IMG/VR virus record: IMGVR_UViG_2703718819_000006
Direction: 5' to 3' (one strand)
Origin: a virus
Taxonomy: Duplodnaviria; Heunggongvirae; Uroviricota; Caudoviricetes
Length of the DNA: 64,000 bases
In this document: positions 11,927-37,278 of the stretch, in pieces
How the letters are laid out: every line of letters begins with the position of its first letter
Numbering within the stretch: position 1 is the first letter of the stretch
Notes under the pieces: generated by a model
Told to the model about the DNA's origin: nothing
What the model saw: only the letters and a program-made list of their open reading frames with translations
The model's database searches: none
Made by a program: the position numbers and the translations under genes

Positions 11927-12022
11927 AGATCCCTCTAAAACACACAGAGCGCGTCCATGCGCTCTAAAACAACTTGTTTACTGCATCTGCTAACCAACTT
12001 GTTTTCTGGGGTGTTTAATTAG

Positions 12023-20221: not shown

Positions 20222-20248
20222 GAGCGCCCACTATGGGCGCTTTTTTCG
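20222..20248 (+). terminator. rho-independent terminator AGCGCCCACTATGGGCGCT + TTTTTT
   Basis: Hairpin plus T-run seen in sequence; sister hairpin AGCGCCCACAGTGGGCGCT at 19726-19747. Confidence 0.6.
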
Positions 20249-20699
20249 TTTCCAATACTCCCACCATAACGCGCCAATGATGGCGCGTTTTTATTGTCTT
20301 TAACTCACTCCAACAACATAAAAATAAGCGCCAAAATAACGCCATAGACGCGCTTTTACATCCTTACCAGTACATACCCATTACTTAACACATTAACGCG
20401 CTTAAAACGCGTTATATTGCGCTATAGAGTATGGTTAATCATTGGCTTTTAGTCTTGCCATGTGATCCGCGTTAATTTGTCGGTGCGGATCGGCATTTTG
20501 TTTTGTTCTGTATCCGCTCGCGTATTATGTGCGCGTAATTTTTCACATAATCACACCACTTAATCACGTATGTGATTATGCTACGAAAGAAATCTGGATG
20601 TCTCAGGTGACGAAAGTCATCATAATTTTCCCCGCTCACCTGTCCGACAACCGCTGGTTGGATTCCACCAGCTTCCCGATGTTTTTTCTACATAAAGGC

Positions 20700-23965: not shown

Positions 23966-24229
23966 TGTATGGACCGAAGGCTGACCGTAGGGGTGTTACG
24001 GGGGATAAAATCAGGAGTTGAATAAATACGAAAAAGGAGGCGACACCCCTCCTTCCCTCCCCACTTATACATACCTGTCTTGTTCGCTATACATGTTGTG
24101 TTTTCTTCGTGTTTTATCTGTTTCAACCTCTCTATAGGCGTTAATGCTCACTCCTTCCAGAACGTTCTATACGGCGACTATTTCTGTTGGTGAATTGGGT
24201 GTGTTGTTTTCTCTGTCGGTGTATGTGGT

Positions 24230-24660
24230 TTCGTTCGTTTTGCGGTGGTTCTTCTATGGGGTGTTCTCGTCGTTTTGGTGATTGTTCTTCTCCGTGTATG
24301 GAGTAATGGCAGGTGGGCGATTCCTTTCGTTGTTGTGTTTGAGTTGTTTGTCTGGAGTGTGTGGAAGGCTTTTGTAGTTATTCGTGTATTGGGTAATGGC
24401 GTTTCCCGTGATTGTTATGTTTCGTGTCTTTTGGGGTTGAGAGAATCCTTGCGGTTACAGGCTTCGTTGGGTTTTCAGTGATTCTGGTGTTTCTTCGCTG
24501 TTTGGGGAATGGCGTGTCGTGGGTATCGCGCGTATGAATGTTTTCGGATTGCCTGTGAAAGTTAGGTTGGTTGTCCGGTAGCCTGGGGAGAAGAGGTGGG
24601 TCTTTTCGGTAGCCTGCCATAAAGAGGTTGGTTGTTTTTGGGAATGGCATTTGTGTTATT
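24230..24660. repeat. GT-rich strand-skewed region with ~100-bp periodic GG(G)TAATGGC(G) units
   Basis: Four units near 24290, 24385, 24497, 24637; plus strand almost devoid of A/C runs. Confidence 0.5.
24548..24645. repeat. ~30-bp direct repeats CGGTAGCCTG..AAGAGGTTGGTTGT (3 units)
   Basis: Seen in sequence; matches 21400-21485. Confidence 0.5.
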
Positions 24661-25028
24661 TAGTTGTTTTGTTATGCCTGAAAATAAGTTGTTTATATGG
24701 TTGTGTAACGCAACGGGAGCGATTTTGAGCGTGTGTTTTTGTTGGTAGTGTGTTGGGTCGTCTGTGGTGAAAATTGGACGCTGTGGCGCTGTCTGCTGCG
24801 TAGAGTTACGGGTATAAGAAGTGATGTGTGAAAACGTCAATTTTTTAGACCAAATCGGGTGAAAGCGTTGACGTTTCGTTGATCTGTTATTTAGTTGTTT
24901 TCTTATTTGTATAAACAACCATAACCTATTGATATTTAAGGGTATGATTGCAGGTATGGAAGTGGGGTAGTGGCGATCAACGGATTCTTATAGAAAAGAA
25001 TCAAATTGTGACCGCCATTATCAATGTT

Positions 25029-25808: not shown

Positions 25809-26117
25809 TTACCAGTTCCAGCACTCAAGCCCTTCAACGACTGGTGCTCCACAATCAAAATGTACAGAGTCAAAGCCTACATCAAGTACTTTCTGAATGT
25901 TAGCAATCGCGCCTTCGGATATACCATATCGACGCAAGTCGTCTTTCCAGACATCATCCTGTAACCCGGCGTGAACAATACAACCGCCATCAATTTGTGA
26001 AACCCAATCCAGCTCATTGCTTGCGATCATGAATCGGCGAGCATCTTCCTCTGATGTATGAGATGAACTGATCAATGCCACCTGGTAGGCTTGGGTAATG
26101 TTCAACATTTCAACCAC
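25809..26117 (-). CDS. hypothetical protein
   Basis: 102 aa; family-1 motif directly upstream. Confidence 0.45.
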   Translation of the reverse strand: MVEMLNITQAYQVALISSSHTSEEDARRFMIASNELDWVSQIDGGCIVHAGLQDDVWKDDLRRYGISEGAIANIQKVLDVGFDSVHFDCGAPVVEGLECWNW

Positions 26118-26121
26118 TCCG

Positions 26122-26137
26122 AAACAATTTGTTTTCT
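26122..26137. promoter_or_regulatory. family-1 motif AAACAATTTGTTTTCT
   Basis: Upstream of 26117 start. Confidence 0.5.
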
Positions 26138-26169
26138 TATGTGGCTTATTATCTCAATCAACAAAAGGT

Positions 26170-26186
26170 AGAAAACAAATTGTTTT
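26170..26186. promoter_or_regulatory. family-1 motif, opposite orientation (AGAAAACAAATTGTTTT)
   Basis: Forms inverted pair with 26122-26137; last phage-type element before host-type metG terminator. Confidence 0.5.
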
Positions 26187-26214
26187 AGGGCTTGTGTAAA
26201 TCAGGAGGGATTGT

Positions 26215-26250
26215 GTCTATATGAAAATGCCCAGCGTGTTGCCGGGCATT
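26215..26250 (-). terminator. metG terminator hairpin (AATGCCC..GGGCATT) + T-run
   Basis: Seen in sequence just downstream of metG stop. Confidence 0.5.
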
Positions 26251-26269
26251 GTGAAAAATGGTTGTTTAG

Positions 26270-28303
26270 TTACTTAACTTGGTGGCCTGGTTTAGCACCA
26301 GCATCCGGGCTTAACAGGAAGATATCTTTTCCGCCAGGGCCAGCAGCCATCACCATGCCTTCGGAGATACCGAAGCGCATTTTACGCGGTGCCAGGTTAG
26401 CCACCATAATGGTGTGACGACCAATCAGTGCCTGTGGATCTGGATAAGCGGAACGAATGCCTGAGAAGACATTACGTTTTTCTCCGCCGAGATCCAGTGT
26501 CAGGCGCAGCAGTTTGTCAGAACCTTCGACAAACTCCGCGTTTTCAATCAGTGCCACGCGCAGGTCAACTTTGGCGAAGTCGTCAAAGGTGATGGTTTCC
26601 TGAATCGGATCGTCTGCCAGCGGGCCAGTTACCGGTGCGGCAGCGGCTTTGACTTCTTCTTTAGACGCTTCCACCAGTGCTTCAACCTGCTTCATATCGA
26701 TACGGTTATACAGAGCTTTGAACGGATTCACTTTATGTCCCAACAGCGGTTGCTGGATACCATCCCAGGTCAGTTCCGTATTGAGGAATGCCTCTGCACG
26801 TTCAGTCAGTTTTGGCAGTACCGGTTTCAGGTACGTCATCAGCACGCGGAACAGGTTAATGCCCATAGAGCAAATCGCCTGCAGATCGGCATCGCGACCT
26901 TCCTGCTTCGCCACCACCCACGGAGCCTGTTCATCGACATAGCGGTTAGCCAGGTCAGCCAGTGCCATGATTTCACGGATAGCTTTACCAAATTCGCGGC
27001 TTTCCCATGCTTCGCCAATCACTTCAGCGGCATCAGTAAAGGTTTTGTACAGTTGCGGGTCAGCCAGTTCGCTTGCCAGCACGCCGTCAAAACGCTTGTT
27101 GATAAAGCCTGCATTACGGGAGGCCAGGTTAACCACTTTGTTCACGATATCGGCATTCACGCGCTGAACGAAATCCTCCAGGTTGAGATCGATATCATCA
27201 ATGCGCGAAGAGAGTTTCGCAGTGTAGTAGTAACGCAGGCTGTCGGCGTCAAAATGATTCAGCCAGGTGCTGGCTTTAATAAAGGTGCCGCGAGACTTGG
27301 ACATCTTCGCACCGTTCACCGTCACATAGCCATGAACAAACAGGTTGGTCGGCTTGCGGAAGTTGCTGCCTTCTAGCATGGCAGGCCAGAACAGGCTGTG
27401 GAAGTAAACGATATCTTTGCCGATGAAGTGGTACAGCTCGGCGGTAGAGTCTTTCTTCCAGTATTCGTCGAAGCTGGTGGTGTCGCCGCGTTTGTCGCAC
27501 AGATTCTTGAAGGAACCCATGTAGCCAATCGGCGCGTCCAGCCAGACGTAGAAATATTTGCCCGGCGCGTTCGGAATTTCAAAACCGAAGTAAGGCGCAT
27601 CGCGGGAGATATCCCACTGTTGCAGGCCGGATTCAAACCATTCCTGCATTTTGTTTGCCACCTGCTCCTGCAACGCGCCGCTGCGGGTCCATGCCTGCAA
27701 CATTTCGCTGAAAGAAGGCAGATCAAAGAAGAAGTGTTCAGAATCACGCATTACCGGCGTAGCGCCAGAAACCACCGATTTCGGTTCAATCAGTTCAGTC
27801 GGGCTGTATGTCGCGCCGCAGACTTCACAGTTATCGCCGTATTGATCTGGCGCTTTACATTTCGGGCAGGTGCCTTTTACAAAACGGTCCGGCAGGAACA
27901 TGCCTTTTTCCGGGTCGTACAGCTGAGAGATGGTGCGGTTTTTAATAAAACCGTTCTCTTTCAGGCGAGTATAGATAAGCTCAGACAACTGACGGTTCTC
28001 TTCGCTGTGCGTCGAGTGATAGTTGTCATAGCTGATGTTAAAGCCTGCGAAATCAGTCTGATGTTCCTGACTCATTTCGCCAATCATCTGTTCCGGTGTG
28101 ATACCAAGCTGCTGTGCTTTCAGCATGATTGGCGTACCGTGGGCATCGTCGGCACAGATGAAATTAACCTCGTGGCCGCGCATTCGCTGGTAACGAACCC
28201 AGACATCAGCCTGGATGTGCTCCAGCATATGGCCGAGGTGGATTGAGCCGTTAGCGTACGGCAGCGCGCACGTCACCAGAATTTTCTTCGCGACTTGGGT
28301 CAT
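26270..28303 (-). CDS. metG: methionine--tRNA ligase
   Basis: Translation from ATG at 28303 ([48 protein letters not shown]...) has class-I HIGH motif and KMSKS (GAKMSKSRG) and matches my recollection of enterobacterial MetG essentially residue for residue; the 43-aa extension in the ORF track is spurious. Confidence 0.95.
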
Positions 28304-28460
28304 AGTAGGCATTACTTCTTTGTAGTGAAAAGGGGCTTGATAGTAACAAAATGGCCTTATGTCTGCCATGTGATAACAGCATTTCTCATAAATGATTAAA
28401 TGTCGTAGCTGGAGTACACTACAAGGCGACAATTGCGCAAATTAAAATAAAGGAGACGGG

Positions 28461-29561
28461 ATGAGCGAGTCCAAATCGCCGGATGCCCTGAGAGCAATGG
28501 TAGCCGGTACGCTGGCTAATTTTCAGCACCCAACCCTGAAACACAACCTGACTACGCTTAAAGCGTTACACCATGTTGCGTTGATGGATGACACACTGCA
28601 TGTCGAACTAATCATGCCTTTCGTGTGGAATAAGCCTTTTGAAGACCTGAAAGAGCAATGTAGTGGTGATCTGCTCCGTATCACTGGCGCAAAGGCTATT
28701 GACTGGAAGCTGTCGTACAACATTGCCACGCTTAAGCGCGTCAAAAACCAACCAGGCATTAATGGCGTTAAGAACATTATCGCCGTCAGCTCAGGCAAGG
28801 GCGGCGTGGGTAAATCCTCCACGGCGGTAAACCTGGCACTGGCGTTGGCTGCTGAAGGTGCGAAAGTTGGTATTTTGGATGCCGATATCTATGGTCCATC
28901 AATTCCAACCATGCTGGGCGCGGAAAACCAACGTCCAACCTCACCTGATGGTACTCACATGGCACCTATCATGTCTCATGGCCTGGCAACCAACTCTATT
29001 GGTTATCTGGTCACCGACGACAATGCAATGGTGTGGCGTGGACCGATGGCAAGCAAGGCGCTGATGCAGATGTTGCAGGAAACTCTATGGCCTGATCTGG
29101 ACTATCTTGTTCTCGATATGCCGCCGGGCACTGGTGATATTCAGTTGACGCTGGCGCAGAACATTCCTGTAACTGGTGCTGTTGTGGTAACTACGCCGCA
29201 AGACATCGCGCTGATCGATGCGAAGAAAGGCATTGTGATGTTCGAAAAAGTCGAAGTGCCGGTACTGGGTATCGTCGAAAACATGAGTGTGCATATTTGC
29301 AGTAACTGCGGTCATCACGAGCCAATTTTTGGCACCGGTGGCGCAGAGAAACTGGCCGAGAAATACAACACGCAGTTGTTAGGCCAAATGCCACTTCATA
29401 TCTCACTTCGTGAAGATCTGGATAACGGAACACCAACCGTTATTAGTCGTCCAGATAGTGAATTTACGGCTATTTATCGTGACCTCGCAGATCGCGTTGC
29501 TGCCCAAATGTATTGGCAAGGTGAAGTAATACCTGGCGAAATCGCATTCCGCGCAGTGTGA
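28461..29561 (+). CDS. apbC: Fe-S cluster carrier ATPase ApbC/Mrp
   Basis: 366 aa; deviant Walker A SGKGGVGKS, CxxC (CSNCGH); divergent from metG as in enterobacterial chromosomes. Confidence 0.9.
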   Translation: MSESKSPDALRAMVAGTLANFQHPTLKHNLTTLKALHHVALMDDTLHVELIMPFVWNKPFEDLKEQCSGDLLRITGAKAIDWKLSYNIATLKRVKNQPGINGVKNIIAVSSGKGGVGKSSTAVNLALALAAEGAKVGILDADIYGPSIPTMLGAENQRPTSPDGTHMAPIMSHGLATNSIGYLVTDDNAMVWRGPMASKALMQMLQETLWPDLDYLVLDMPPGTGDIQLTLAQNIPVTGAVVVTTPQDIALIDAKKGIVMFEKVEVPVLGIVENMSVHICSNCGHHEPIFGTGGAEKLAEKYNTQLLGQMPLHISLREDLDNGTPTVISRPDSEFTAIYRDLADRVAAQMYWQGEVIPGEIAFRAV

Positions 29562-29564
29562 TAA

Positions 29565-29590
29565 AAAGGTGGTGCATTGCACCACCTAAA
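29565..29590 (-). terminator. hairpin AGGTGGTGCATTGCACCACCT with A/T-run
   Basis: Lies 5 bp after apbC stop and 10 bp after UmuD'-like gene stop; T-run is on minus strand. Confidence 0.45.
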
Positions 29591-29598
29591 CAGTTCTC

Positions 29599-29988
29599 CT
29601 ACATCACAGGACAATCATCAAACTCGCCACTTCTTGCGTCGTTGATAATGTGAGTGATCACACCAAACACGGCATTGCTGCCCGTGCATCCATCGTCATC
29701 CTTTGGCAATGCTTCCTTCTTACCAGTTCTTAAATCCTCCAGATGCTGACGTGGATACTTCCGGTATCTTTTTACGCGATATTCCCCATCCAGAGCGCAT
29801 ACAAGCAGAGAACCATCAACCGGGGTAAGTGAGGAATCGACCACCAGCAATGCGCCCTGCAATATTCCCTCACGATGATGGCTGTCAGCCGCTCTCATGA
29901 AGTAGGTCGCTGAAGGATGTCTAATTATCTGCTGATCAAGAGAAATACGGCTCTCAGCATAATCCGCCGCAGGAGAAGGGAAGCCCAT
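29599..29988 (-). CDS. UmuD'-like peptidase S24 family protein (pre-truncated form, HumD-like)
   Basis: 129 aa; begins GFPSPAADY... which aligns to the start of mature UmuD' (after the Cys-Gly self-cleavage site) as I recall E. coli UmuD; Ser (ADSH) and Lys (RVKR) positions retained. Confidence 0.7.
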   Translation of the reverse strand: MGFPSPAADYAESRISLDQQIIRHPSATYFMRAADSHHREGILQGALLVVDSSLTPVDGSLLVCALDGEYRVKRYRKYPRQHLEDLRTGKKEALPKDDDGCTGSNAVFGVITHIINDARSGEFDDCPVM

Positions 29989-30107
29989 AGCGTTTTGCCC
30001 TCAATACTGTTCATTTATACAGTATACATGAAAGAAGCTCACTAAGTGCAACTGATCGGTACATAGCACCAGACAAATGAACGTTATTTTCTCGAACAAG
30101 AAAAGGT

Positions 30108-30144
30108 AGAAAACAAATTGTTTAAGGCCACAACTAGTGGCCTT
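30108..30144. promoter_or_regulatory. family-1 motif AGAAAACAAATTGTTT fused to hairpin AAGGCCACAACTAGTGGCCTT
   Basis: Upstream of 29988 start; same composite element at 34379-34416. Confidence 0.5.
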
Positions 30145-30160
30145 AATGGAGAAGGGATGC

Positions 30161-30685
30161 TTATTGGCTATGGCTAAAAATCAAATGAGACACTTCATTT
30201 GGTTGTAGCTCGTCAAGATCCGGGGCCACAAAACCTTTTCCGAAAGACTTCACAAGTGATTCACCAGCCGCATCATTGTCACCTATTACGCGAAAGTCAT
30301 ACGGCAGCATTGCCAGTTGACGACGTAATCCTGCTGAGAAAGTCGAACCTAACAGCGCCCACGAATTTCCGCCCGCGTTGTGCACTGCTGCACTTTTAAA
30401 AATCGACTCAGTTATCCATATCGGTCCATCTTTTAAAGGAAGATAGGTTCCCCATAGTAGCTGTCTGCCGTGCGCTCGTGTGAAATACCGGGCCATCTTC
30501 GGATTGCTATGCTGCTTAGGAGCGCCTGGTCTGTATGTCTGATACCCGGCCAACATCCCATCAAACCTGTATAGAGGGAATGTAACAACTCCTTCGCTTT
30601 CATCGATCCACTGTCTATATGGATGCACATCATGGCGGTAGTTACGAGTTAGCAAATGAGCTTCCAGCTTTCCAAATTTAGTCAT
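30161..30685 (-). CDS. hypothetical protein, possible Toprim-like motif (VIGDNDAAGE); start at MTKFGK
   Basis: Internal ATG at 30685 avoids overlap with upstream gene. Confidence 0.35.
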   Translation of the reverse strand: MTKFGKLEAHLLTRNYRHDVHPYRQWIDESEGVVTFPLYRFDGMLAGYQTYRPGAPKQHSNPKMARYFTRAHGRQLLWGTYLPLKDGPIWITESIFKSAAVHNAGGNSWALLGSTFSAGLRRQLAMLPYDFRVIGDNDAAGESLVKSFGKGFVAPDLDELQPNEVSHLIFSHSQ

Positions 30686-30698
30686 AACTTCGCATCCC

Positions 30699-34327: not shown

Positions 34328-34378
34328 TCTTAACTCCGTTGTTTTCTAGTTGTGGTTATTTTCACAAATAAGAAAAGG

Positions 34379-35575: not shown

Positions 35576-35595
35576 AGGTAAGTATTTACCTATCA
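35576..35595. promoter_or_regulatory. family-2 palindrome TAGGTAAGTATTTACCTATC
   Basis: In gap upstream of 35531 start. Confidence 0.45.
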
Positions 35596-37278
35596 TTTAA
35601 CGCGTTTGAAAACGTATACGCTGACTGTGATCCCTGTGTCTTCAAACTCGTTGGTAAACGACTTCCCTCTGGCATAAACGTAATTATCCATCGTCATCCA
35701 GTCCAGTATTGGCGCAGTGCCCGGCAATACTGCTACAAGACGCCCGCCGACTTTCAGATGCCCCAGCGCAGCCAGCGTGTGCTCTCTATGACGACCAAGC
35801 GAGTACGGCGGGTTCATAACGATTTTGTCGAACTGATAACCTACGTTGTCCTCAGACCACTTTATGAAGTCGCAGCAAATCGTGTTCGTATACCCTTTTC
35901 CGCGCAGGATATCAGCGAAGAGAGGTGCGATTTCTATGCAGGTAACATCTTCCAGATCGGCGTTGATATAGGCCAGAAGATCCCCACGTCCGGCTTGAGG
36001 CTCCAGCAGCTTCTCACCAGGCTTCAATTCAGTGGCTCTGGCAACGTACTCAGCAATCAAGCGTGGGGTAGGGTAGAACTGGTGTGATTTTGTATCCGGT
36101 ATTAATCCGGTAGCCACAATCGTATTTAGCGTATGGCCGATCTCATACGGGAACTGCCAGTGCTTTTTCTCCTGCACGCCGCCAATGAAGCTCAGTGTGC
36201 GCTCAAGCTCTTCCACCTGCGACTTCTGGAGAGCTGAATCAGAGAAGTACCATACGCCTTTGTCTTTGCTTAATCGCCCGTCACGAAGCGCAGTGCGAAC
36301 CGGCACGGAGATCGTCTTCTGGATTAACCCGAACTGCTTTGGTGCCCGTGTTTTTGGCGCGGTGCGACATGGCGCGGGGATTGCAGCAGGCATACTGTAA
36401 GCCAGCACCTCATTCAACTTCCAGGCCACGTCAGGATGTATTTCAAAGTGAACGTTGCCGTTCTTGAACATCTTCACGCGCATTAGATTTCCATCGACGT
36501 TCATCCAGTCACCGGTCTGGCAGTCGTTTGCCCGATACGCAGCTGATAGCACCTCAGCAGTGCGGTTGATGGTAATAAATTCTTTGTGCGCGAAGAAATG
36601 AAGCAAGACACGCAGATCGTCGATATAGTCCTCTTTGCGATAGTTCACACTAACGCTGTCCCGCCAGAAATCAGAAATGCAGTCAGCGATTATCAGACGT
36701 TCGCTGAAACCGTTTGTCTTATTTGTCTTGTGCGCAGGACTCAGCGCCTTAAACAAGCCATACACGCGCTCAGAGAGATATTTGTGCCTGTCATTCAGCA
36801 AATTAAGCATCGTGGGTATGACCGTTTCTGCTTTGAACTCCGGTACACCAACGAACTCTTTAACCTTCATCTGGTAGCCGGTTCTGTCAGTTTTGATGAC
36901 TTCCTGTTTGCCCTCTATAAACTGCTCGCGCCACTCATCTCGACGGGAAGCTGGCATGATCAGCAAAACGTTAGTCATGTCCGTGACCTTCCTCCAGTAC
37001 TCGGCCCAAATATTCTGTTTCACCCATTCCAGATCGACTTTATCCAACCAACCTCGATTTAAACGCGAGCGATCTTCATCTGGTCGATGGTTTAGTCTCA
37101 GCAGGCGATTAATCATGTTGTGGCGTTCGTCGCCATAAACGAAGTCGTGTACCTGATACATGAAGGCGATCTCTTTCTCGCACTCGGCCACAATTTCGTG
37201 GATGACGTTCATTTCCTGCCGATAGTCGATAGCAGTGTTTGAGTTGGCATCGTCGATGATGGAAAGGGCTGTATTCAT
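35593..37278 (-). CDS. N6-adenine DNA methyltransferase with large N-terminal domain of unknown function
   Basis: 561 aa; C-terminal FYPTP...EPQAGRGDLL...NPPYS motifs (SAM-binding and catalytic NPPY). Confidence 0.6.
   Translation of the reverse strand: MNTALSIIDDANSNTAIDYRQEMNVIHEIVAECEKEIAFMYQVHDFVYGDERHNMINRLLRLNHRPDEDRSRLNRGWLDKVDLEWVKQNIWAEYWRKVTDMTNVLLIMPASRRDEWREQFIEGKQEVIKTDRTGYQMKVKEFVGVPEFKAETVIPTMLNLLNDRHKYLSERVYGLFKALSPAHKTNKTNGFSERLIIADCISDFWRDSVSVNYRKEDYIDDLRVLLHFFAHKEFITINRTAEVLSAAYRANDCQTGDWMNVDGNLMRVKMFKNGNVHFEIHPDVAWKLNEVLAYSMPAAIPAPCRTAPKTRAPKQFGLIQKTISVPVRTALRDGRLSKDKGVWYFSDSALQKSQVEELERTLSFIGGVQEKKHWQFPYEIGHTLNTIVATGLIPDTKSHQFYPTPRLIAEYVARATELKPGEKLLEPQAGRGDLLAYINADLEDVTCIEIAPLFADILRGKGYTNTICCDFIKWSEDNVGYQFDKIVMNPPYSLGRHREHTLAALGHLKVGGRLVAVLPGTAPILDWMTMDNYVYARGKSFTNEFEDTGITVSVYVFKRVK

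Follow-up and report, generated by a model that had tools for sequence, protein, structure and literature searches.

In the window, a stretch of 64,000 nucleotides from the Caudoviricetes record IMGVR_UViG_2703718819_000006 of IMG/VR, two genes of bacterial housekeeping type stand back to back among phage genes. These are metG, for methionyl-tRNA synthetase (MetRS), and apbC (mrp), for an iron–sulfur (Fe-S) cluster carrier ATPase (Table 1). The initial annotation of this DNA had placed a host-type metG–apbC pair inside the DNA of a mobile phage element, and this placement was borne out by equivalog scores, by the phage genes on both sides and by related plasmid and phage records. Our reading, which we hold with considerable confidence, is that the pair forms a self-contained cargo cassette of an SSU5-type phage-plasmid, that it would have been acquired long ago, and that it would serve the lysogen.

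Table 1. Position, strand and supporting evidence for the cassette, its slot and the neighbouring features
Feature	Position	Strand	Evidence
DUF5983-family gene, left neighbour of the slot, conserved	25809-26117	minus	Pfam DUF5983, E = 7.6e-11
Promoter/operator region of the DUF5983 gene	26122-26185	minus	two inverted AAACAA-N-TTGTTT copies flanking a -10-like GATAAT
Boundary element, left copy, 44 nt	26146-26189	plus	23-nt exact core at 26163-26185
Replaceable cargo slot, here with the metG–apbC cassette and its own hairpins	26200-29598	none	alignment to NZ_CP141793 (L090)
Intrinsic terminator hairpin of metG, followed by UUUUCAU	26226-26250	minus	folding -16.9 kcal/mol, z = -5.6
metG, full-length methionyl-tRNA synthetase, 677 aa	26270-28303	minus	NF001100; HLGH, KMSKS and zinc-knuckle motifs
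Divergent intergenic (promoter) region, 157 bp	28304-28460	none	alignment to chromosomal loci
apbC/mrp, Fe-S cluster carrier P-loop ATPase, 366 aa	28461-29561	plus	NF008669; GKGGVGKS and CSNCGH
Hairpin between convergent apbC and humD	29567-29587	none	folding -15.8 and -15.3 kcal/mol
humD, P1-type UmuD'-like translesion polymerase subunit, right neighbour of the slot, conserved	29599-29988	minus	HumD equivalog
LexA box TACTGT-N8-ACAGTA before humD	30005-30024	minus	read from the sequence; homologous site annotated in P7
Boundary element, right copy (30084-30127), and toprim-operon terminator hairpin (30122-30146, from the operon upstream), which overlap	30084-30146	minus	repeat and folding scans

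Profile searches against NCBIfam assigned both genes at the equivalog level. MetG, a class I synthetase of the dimeric enterobacterial type, scored 1019.9 bits with NF001100 over residues 4-677 (cutoff 587), and TIGR00398 and the metG C-terminal model likewise exceeded their cutoffs. Its translation holds the HLGH and KMSKS signatures and a CPKC...CEVC zinc knuckle, together with the Pfam domains tRNA-synt_1g, Anticodon_3 and tRNA_bind (residues 581-674). Only 7 substitutions, all conservative, separate the protein from the K-12 enzyme (99% identity), and on this basis it would be expected to be active in aminoacylation. ApbC, a carrier ATPase of the NBP35/Mrp type, reached 759.7 bits with NF008669 (cutoff 348), and its translation contains a deviant Walker A motif (SGKGGVGKSS) and a CXXC motif. 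The neighbouring HumD reached 219.8 bits with its equivalog (cutoff 120), and the humD nucleotide sequence is 85-87% identical to humD of P7 and D6.

The ends of the pair were defined by homology and by folding. Homology to the K-12 chromosome is confined to 26270-29557, from the metG stop codon to a point no more than 4 nt from that of apbC. In comparisons with K-12, Escherichia sp. E1V33, Citrobacter, Salmonella and Kluyvera, no homology was found beyond the two stop codons, where the hairpins lie; with the alignments to all five enterobacterial loci ending at the stop codons, a chromosomal origin of the cassette hairpins was rejected. These limits and the hairpins agree with the earlier proposal that the junctions fall close to gene and terminator boundaries, but two of the distances given then have to be corrected. 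A phage repeat motif does follow the metG terminator, at 40 bp from the hairpin rather than at about 30 bp. A UmuD'-like gene does end near apbC, but the humD stop codon lies 37 bp past the apbC stop codon, and the 12 bp stated earlier count from the hairpin at 29567-29587. In this last hairpin the U-tract is confined to the humD-sense strand, and its stem shows a compensatory change between the window and the related phage-plasmid Cyrano.

A cargo slot in an SSU5-type backbone

The window represents part of a siphoviral phage-plasmid of the SSU5/pHCM2 type, a group of Escherichia and Shigella elements, of the same kind as pLF82 (Cyrano) and pWPMR2. About 51 of the 64 kb are collinear with Cyrano (OV696614) at 94-98% identity, and the aligned part spans terminase, capsid and tail genes as well as the replication and nucleotide-metabolism backbone. 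A siphovirus structural module and this backbone are thus found on one molecule, in the same order as in members of the supergroup. In addition, 491 IncFIB-type plasmids, pHCM2 included, have the DUF4942 backbone gene at 89-99% identity. Cyrano carries the metG–apbC block at 97% identity; its homology to the window stops at the start of humD (29989), and a different module lies to the right in Cyrano. Cyrano is known to produce virions, to be induced 39-fold by ciprofloxacin and to be present at ~5.5 copies per cell (PMC9928086).

A second close relative is pWPMR2, which belongs to clade K of the SSU5 supergroup (bioRxiv 10.1101/2025.09.12.675607). Shigella sonnei plasmids of this type (107-111 kb) share the SSU5-supergroup backbone, and their metG–apbC–humD block has identical junctions and matches at 97.4%; the window differs in being closest to the E. 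coli plasmid pXH988_2 (98.2%). As in pWPMR2, the phage-plasmid of the SSU5 group supplies an auxiliary metG to cells that have a chromosomal one. A backbone like that of P1, which the UmuD'-like gene and the phage motifs had seemed to imply, was rejected. Only humD and the toprim-gene segment match records of the P1/P7/D6 type (85-94%), and their neighbours differ; humD is not set among P1 backbone genes such as pacAB, lpa and phd/doc, or C1 operators.

The block is widespread. A 6-kb query was covered to at least 80% by 4 phage records and 53 PLSDB plasmids, ~235 PLSDB plasmids match the block at an identity of at least 95%, and more than 30 viral contigs of IMG/VR encode an ApbC that is at least 99% identical. 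With a probe specific to the phage-plasmid form (distal intergenic region and 5′ end of apbC), 218 of 5,426 complete E. coli genomes were positive, at 219 plasmid-borne places and at most 2 chromosomal ones, one of the latter being an ordinary 80% match. The cassette hence occurs in ~4% of complete E. coli genomes. In the same genome set the block was found at 222 places and the DUF4942 backbone marker at 247 plasmid places; therefore, ~90% of the SSU5-like plasmids of E. coli carry the block. Both open reading frames (ORFs) are intact in all 21 full phage-plasmid copies.

The chromosomal locus is retained in every one of the 5,426 E. coli genomes, which answers the earlier question of whether the host keeps a second metG copy. 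These chromosomal loci are uniformly ~90% identical to the block, and the plasmid copies are 95-99% identical. Two origins that had been raised, a chimeric assembly and ordinary chromosome with prophage fragments, could be ruled out, since identical junctions recur in phage records and in complete plasmids that are independent of one another and number in the hundreds. The K-12 locus, moreover, is flanked by yehE and yehF and not by phage genes.

The limits of the exchangeable segment were obtained from a sister SSU5-like element. In E. coli plasmid NZ_CP141793 (L090), the stretches that match 25809-26199 (90%) and 29599-30026 (91%) of the window enclose a 0.9-kb plus-strand DUF4145 gene (L090 7523-8266) in place of metG–apbC. 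Alignment of both flanks around other cargo therefore defines a replaceable slot at 26200-29598, with which the initially proposed interval (26190-29598) nearly coincides. Further occupants were seen elsewhere in the family: pHCM2 (L088 8787-8990) and an Enterobacter relative (L091 7324-7527) carry a plus-strand, host-type ydfZ beside the same combination of motif and hairpin. The SSU5-like plasmids of Salmonella, Klebsiella and Enterobacter that we examined are without the metG–apbC block. The boundaries of the slot and its alternative occupants are new here, as a modest detail.

We read the slot between the DUF5983 gene and the P1-type humD as a cargo ("moron") site, and the cassette in it is self-contained, with its native divergent pair of genes, its own intergenic promoter region and its own hairpins. 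This resembles the morons and cargo hot spots of other phages, in which a host-type unit with its own transcription and termination is set between phage operons at a place where relatives hold other cargo. The features of such an autonomous cassette are all present, namely its own promoter region and terminators, expression in the lysogen and a polymorphic site; the lysogen expression is taken from the literature and the promoter is predicted. Capture by a transposon, an insertion sequence or an integron-type system was rejected. There are no transposase or integrase genes in 25.0-31.5 kb, and neither terminal inverted repeats nor target-site duplications at the ends of the cassette.

Different histories of metG and apbC

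The initial annotation had regarded the two genes as essentially chromosomal and had considered a recent capture. The divergence of the block does not agree with this. As a whole it is 88.5% identical to K-12, and the two genes contribute very unequally. For metG, identity to K-12 is 94.3% at the nucleotide and 98.97% at the protein level, with a nonsynonymous divergence (dN) of 0.005 and a synonymous divergence (dS) of 0.28; for apbC the corresponding values are 82.0% and 95%, with a dN of 0.031 and a dS of ~1.6. Between K-12 and Escherichia sp. E1V33, dS is likewise 0.28 for metG, the same depth as for the phage-plasmid copy, but only 0.58 for apbC. The ratio dN/dS relative to K-12 is 0.019 for metG and for apbC alike, and both genes are under strong purifying selection.

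Trees and base composition show the same discordance. Neighbour-joining trees place phage-plasmid metG within Escherichia, beside K-12 (100/100 bootstraps), whereas phage-plasmid apbC forms a long branch that is sister to both Escherichia sequences (58-91/100 bootstraps). The G+C content at third codon positions (GC3) is 0.51 in apbC versus 0.62 in its K-12 counterpart, and 0.60 versus 0.625 in metG. The comparison of nucleotide identity with the chromosome, which had been suggested as a check, spoke against an essentially chromosomal block. The similarity switches ~47 nt upstream of the metG start codon: the ~47 nt of the intergenic region beside metG are Escherichia-like and the remainder is unlike E. 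coli. ApbC is 3 codons shorter at its N-terminus than the product of the chromosomal gene, through a deletion, and 13 of its 19 lineage-specific substitutions fall within the first 86 residues. Among the matches listed in a comparison with one genome per GTDB species, which are without chromosomes of E. albertii, E. fergusonii and E. marmotae, the best chromosomal match to apbC is 82%.

From the discordance of identity, dS, trees and GC3 it follows that the block is not a recent capture and that its two halves have different histories. The block appears to be a mosaic, with metG nested in Escherichia and apbC on an older, composition-ameliorated branch. These discordant ages are likewise a modest new detail. 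Compared with the chromosomal mrp–metG locus (K-12 b2113-b2114), the window has the same gene pair in the same divergent orientation, coding for proteins of equal length with shared motifs; it differs in the terminators, most of the intergenic region, the three N-terminal codons of apbC, and phage genes in place of yehE and yehF. We infer that the pair would have been taken from a chromosome of the Escherichia lineage long ago, that apbC would then have diverged and ameliorated towards the base composition of the phage, and that metG may have been overwritten repeatedly, in patches, through homologous recombination with the metG of the host chromosome.

Variation among phage-plasmids is in accordance with such overwriting. 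Among 20 distinct phage-plasmid haplotypes, metG has the highest nucleotide diversity, with a pi of 0.033 (0.045 in its 3′ half) compared with 0.015 for apbC and 0.003 for the intergenic region. On chromosomes, metG evolves more slowly than apbC. The MetG of the window has the common phage-plasmid signature S112T S151A S275T V276T S319T V442I R538K. In a 108,107-bp contig (L111), the patch corresponding to 27470-27870 is 99-100% identical to K-12 and four of the signature substitutions are lost; the MetG of this contig also carries G134C, A410T and D565E. A draft contig of 13,004 bp (IMGVR_UViG_2740892421_000017; L095/L121) contains two copies of the locus. The first consists of the yehF-side flank with the 3′ half of chromosomal metG, joined to the 5′ half of phage-plasmid metG and then to phage-plasmid apbC–humD, and the second is an ordinary chromosomal metG–apbC. 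The hybrid may reflect recombination of a phage-plasmid into the chromosomal locus, or a mis-join in assembly.

Together, the haplotypes and the two contigs give signs that host alleles keep overwriting phage-plasmid metG, and the putative conversion tracts are again a modest new detail. If overwriting holds, surveillance based on metG typing must separate chromosomal, plasmid and hybrid copies. A stronger version is that phage-plasmid and host metG are in continuous two-way exchange over ~2 kb of 94-99% identity, with occasional integration, and that SSU5-type elements act as a shuttle that moves alleles. We consider this version possible but tentative. If it were true, metG alleles, tolerance alleles included, would be carried between chromosomes of Escherichia and Shigella, and apbC and the intergenic region would constitute the old, stable core.

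Proposed value of the cassette to the lysogen

Cells carrying the element are merodiploid for MetRS and ApbC, at the copy number of the plasmid. The cassette would benefit the lysogen and, through it, the vertically inherited phage-plasmid. Published work points to the kind of benefit. In PMC12452169, Tam et al. (2024, medRxiv 10.1101/2024.10.27.24316207) are cited for variable metG copies on phage-plasmids of S. sonnei that are associated with multidrug resistance, and for metG expression from the phage-plasmid yielding a subpopulation predisposed to acquire cephalosporin resistance. The metG of pWPMR2 was reported in 2024 to promote antimicrobial survival. The haplotype data presented here agree with the variability of the extra metG. 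On the basis of this literature, a metG-expressing subpopulation of S. sonnei would survive antimicrobials, such survival would favour the host, and the vertically inherited phage-plasmid would be favoured with it.

A full-length aminoacyl-tRNA synthetase on a mobile element had been expected to be notable, and it is, although the phenomenon of metG borne by a phage-plasmid has already been described. An extra enzyme of this kind on a transmissible phage-plasmid is clinically relevant, and in the published work phage-plasmid metG is tied to antimicrobial survival and to epidemic multidrug-resistant S. sonnei. Second aminoacyl-tRNA synthetase copies on plasmids are also represented by the isoleucyl-tRNA synthetases MupA and MupB. 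Unlike these, the MetRS of the window is not a divergent, inhibitor-resistant paralogue but is nearly identical to the housekeeping enzyme.

Expression of the cassette has been recorded in a lysogen. In an LF82 lysogen with Cyrano, grown overnight in lysogeny broth, normalized reads were 148 for humD, 92 for apbC, 16 for MetRS and 7-10 for structural genes (PMC9928086, S1 Table). These data bear on the possibility that the cassette serves lytic growth instead, with extra MetRS sustaining translation initiation and elongation and extra ApbC maturing Fe-S enzymes; both genes would then group with the many nucleotide-metabolism genes and tRNAs of the phage. SSU5-type genomes are indeed rich in tRNAs and in auxiliary genes of metabolism, and those of Cyrano include ribonucleotide reductase, ThyX, dihydrofolate reductase, CobT/CobS-like proteins, glutaredoxin, tRNA-Asn, tRNA-Thr and tRNA-Ser, and the block is kept by most E. 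coli members of the family. However, the cassette brings a host-type promoter region of its own, and its genes are transcribed in the lysogen without induction, apbC at 9-fold over background. It also lies in an accessory slot, which holds unrelated cargo (DUF4145, ydfZ) in other members, and the plasmids of three other genera described above are without it. Furthermore, the published phenotype concerns surviving cells and not phage yield. A lytic role is improbable in our judgement.

We assign a similarly low likelihood to the proposal that apbC is the primary selected cargo, or that both genes act together, with metG kept mainly through the shared divergent promoter region. It has in its favour that no part of the block is older or more uniform than apbC with the intergenic region, that apbC transcription exceeds that of metG ~6-fold in the LF82 lysogen, and that the ApbC changes are concentrated near the N-terminus beside the 3-codon deletion. 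On the other hand, metG is just as intact and just as constrained as apbC, and the only published phenotype is assigned to metG. In addition, the known roles of ApbC have no obvious benefit for a phage-plasmid.

The weakest candidate, a recent one-step capture of mrp–metG from the current host or an artefact of chromosome or assembly, can draw on a gene order and divergence that are the same in every enterobacterial chromosome examined and on the near-identity of MetG to K-12, but we dismiss it in view of the 5,426 chromosomes that are each only ~90% identical to the block, the distant apbC, terminators and an intergenic region that are largely non-homologous to the chromosomal ones, and the recurrent junctions.

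Several points weigh against the preferred explanation of an old cargo cassette that benefits the lysogen. A PLSDB search for an empty site, with the two flanks joined and at an identity of at least 85%, returned no record in which the flanks are adjacent. In LF82, plasmid metG is transcribed at only ~2 times the structural-gene background and far below apbC, which makes a simple effect of metG dosage less obvious there. The antimicrobial-survival phenotype is second-hand, coming through a citing paper (PMC12452169). The contig with two copies of the locus is a draft, in which a mis-join could arise where two metG copies are 99% identical. A closer donor of apbC could exist among the three Escherichia species absent from the matches listed in the donor comparison. 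Finally, gene-specific acceleration of apbC would also give the discordance between metG and apbC.

Boundary elements and additional features

The initial annotation had described the block as bracketed by direct copies of a phage element. The repeat exists, and the right copy of its exact 23 nt was placed correctly at 30101-30123; the left copy lies at 26163-26185 and not at 26164-26186. Taken over its full 44 nt (26146-26189 and 30084-30127), the repeat is 89% identical between the two copies, and the 23-nt form has 4 matches within 3 mismatches, compared with 0.00 expected. Its role as a bracket of the insert does not hold. The left copy adjoins the cassette, and L090 homology runs through it and stops at 26199, but the right copy is found on the far side of humD, at another module joint ~500 bp away from the cassette. 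Homology to the P1-like plasmid L089 begins at 30104, and the right copy marks the joint of the humD module and the toprim module.

The element is dispersed over the window. Its 15-nt core palindrome, AAACAA-N-TTGTTT, has 21 matches compared with 0.46 expected, and a 13-nt form was located at 11967, 21335, 22099, 23002, 23486, 24682, 26122, 26173, 30111, 34383, 38924, 39653, 49873 and 63686. At 13 or more intergenic sites the palindrome stands 12-66 nt upstream of the start of a minus-strand ORF, directly after a -10-like hexamer. The copies at 26122-26137 and 26170-26185 form an inverted repeat with arms that are 100% complementary. At 30084-30146 and near 34373, minus-strand operons terminate in a longer form of the palindrome that is followed by a GC hairpin, and the same motif plus hairpin is found in pHCM2. 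These arrangements suggest that AAACAA-N-TTGTTT is probably the operator of a phage regulator. The 23/44-nt repeat, in turn, is best read as a dispersed boundary element of the phage, combining promoter/operator and terminator functions, and not as a scar of insertion or transposition. Modules are joined at boundary elements of this kind.

Outside the slot, humD with its LexA box and the adjacent gene with a toprim domain (29599-30400; 30104-30686) are common to phage-plasmids of the P1/P7/D6 type at 85-94% identity. The shared region points to an exchange of modules between the two groups of phage-plasmids, which are unrelated but co-occur in E. coli.

The Cyrano orthologue of ApbC, CYRAN_99 (L002 9462-10562), is named "septum site-determining protein MinD" in the record and in Table 1 of PMC9928086. 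This label is a misannotation, given the 759.7 bits for ApbC versus 57.5 bits for bacterial MinD (cutoff 212.9).

A further observation concerns positions 24050-24950, where the plus strand is strongly enriched in G and T over ~900 nt; the 24-25 kb bin has a GC skew of +0.34 and an AT skew of -0.35. The region is without a convincing gene and is 69-79% conserved in pHCM2, the Enterobacter SSU5-like plasmid and L090. Rfam gave nothing for it, and a tandem-repeat finder gave nothing informative. No structured RNA scored over the gathering threshold in an Rfam scan of 20-32 kb; a sub-threshold match to the small RNA family Hrs1 at 20230-20296 on the minus strand (28.6 bits versus a gathering score of 56.4, E = 0.035) is probably due to chance.

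Within the DUF4942 gene (35593-37278), 33 nt at 36571-36603 are 100% identical to an annotated CRISPR feature on the chromosome of E. coli AST85 (NZ_AP043644.1), apparently a spacer against the SSU5-type phage-plasmid family.

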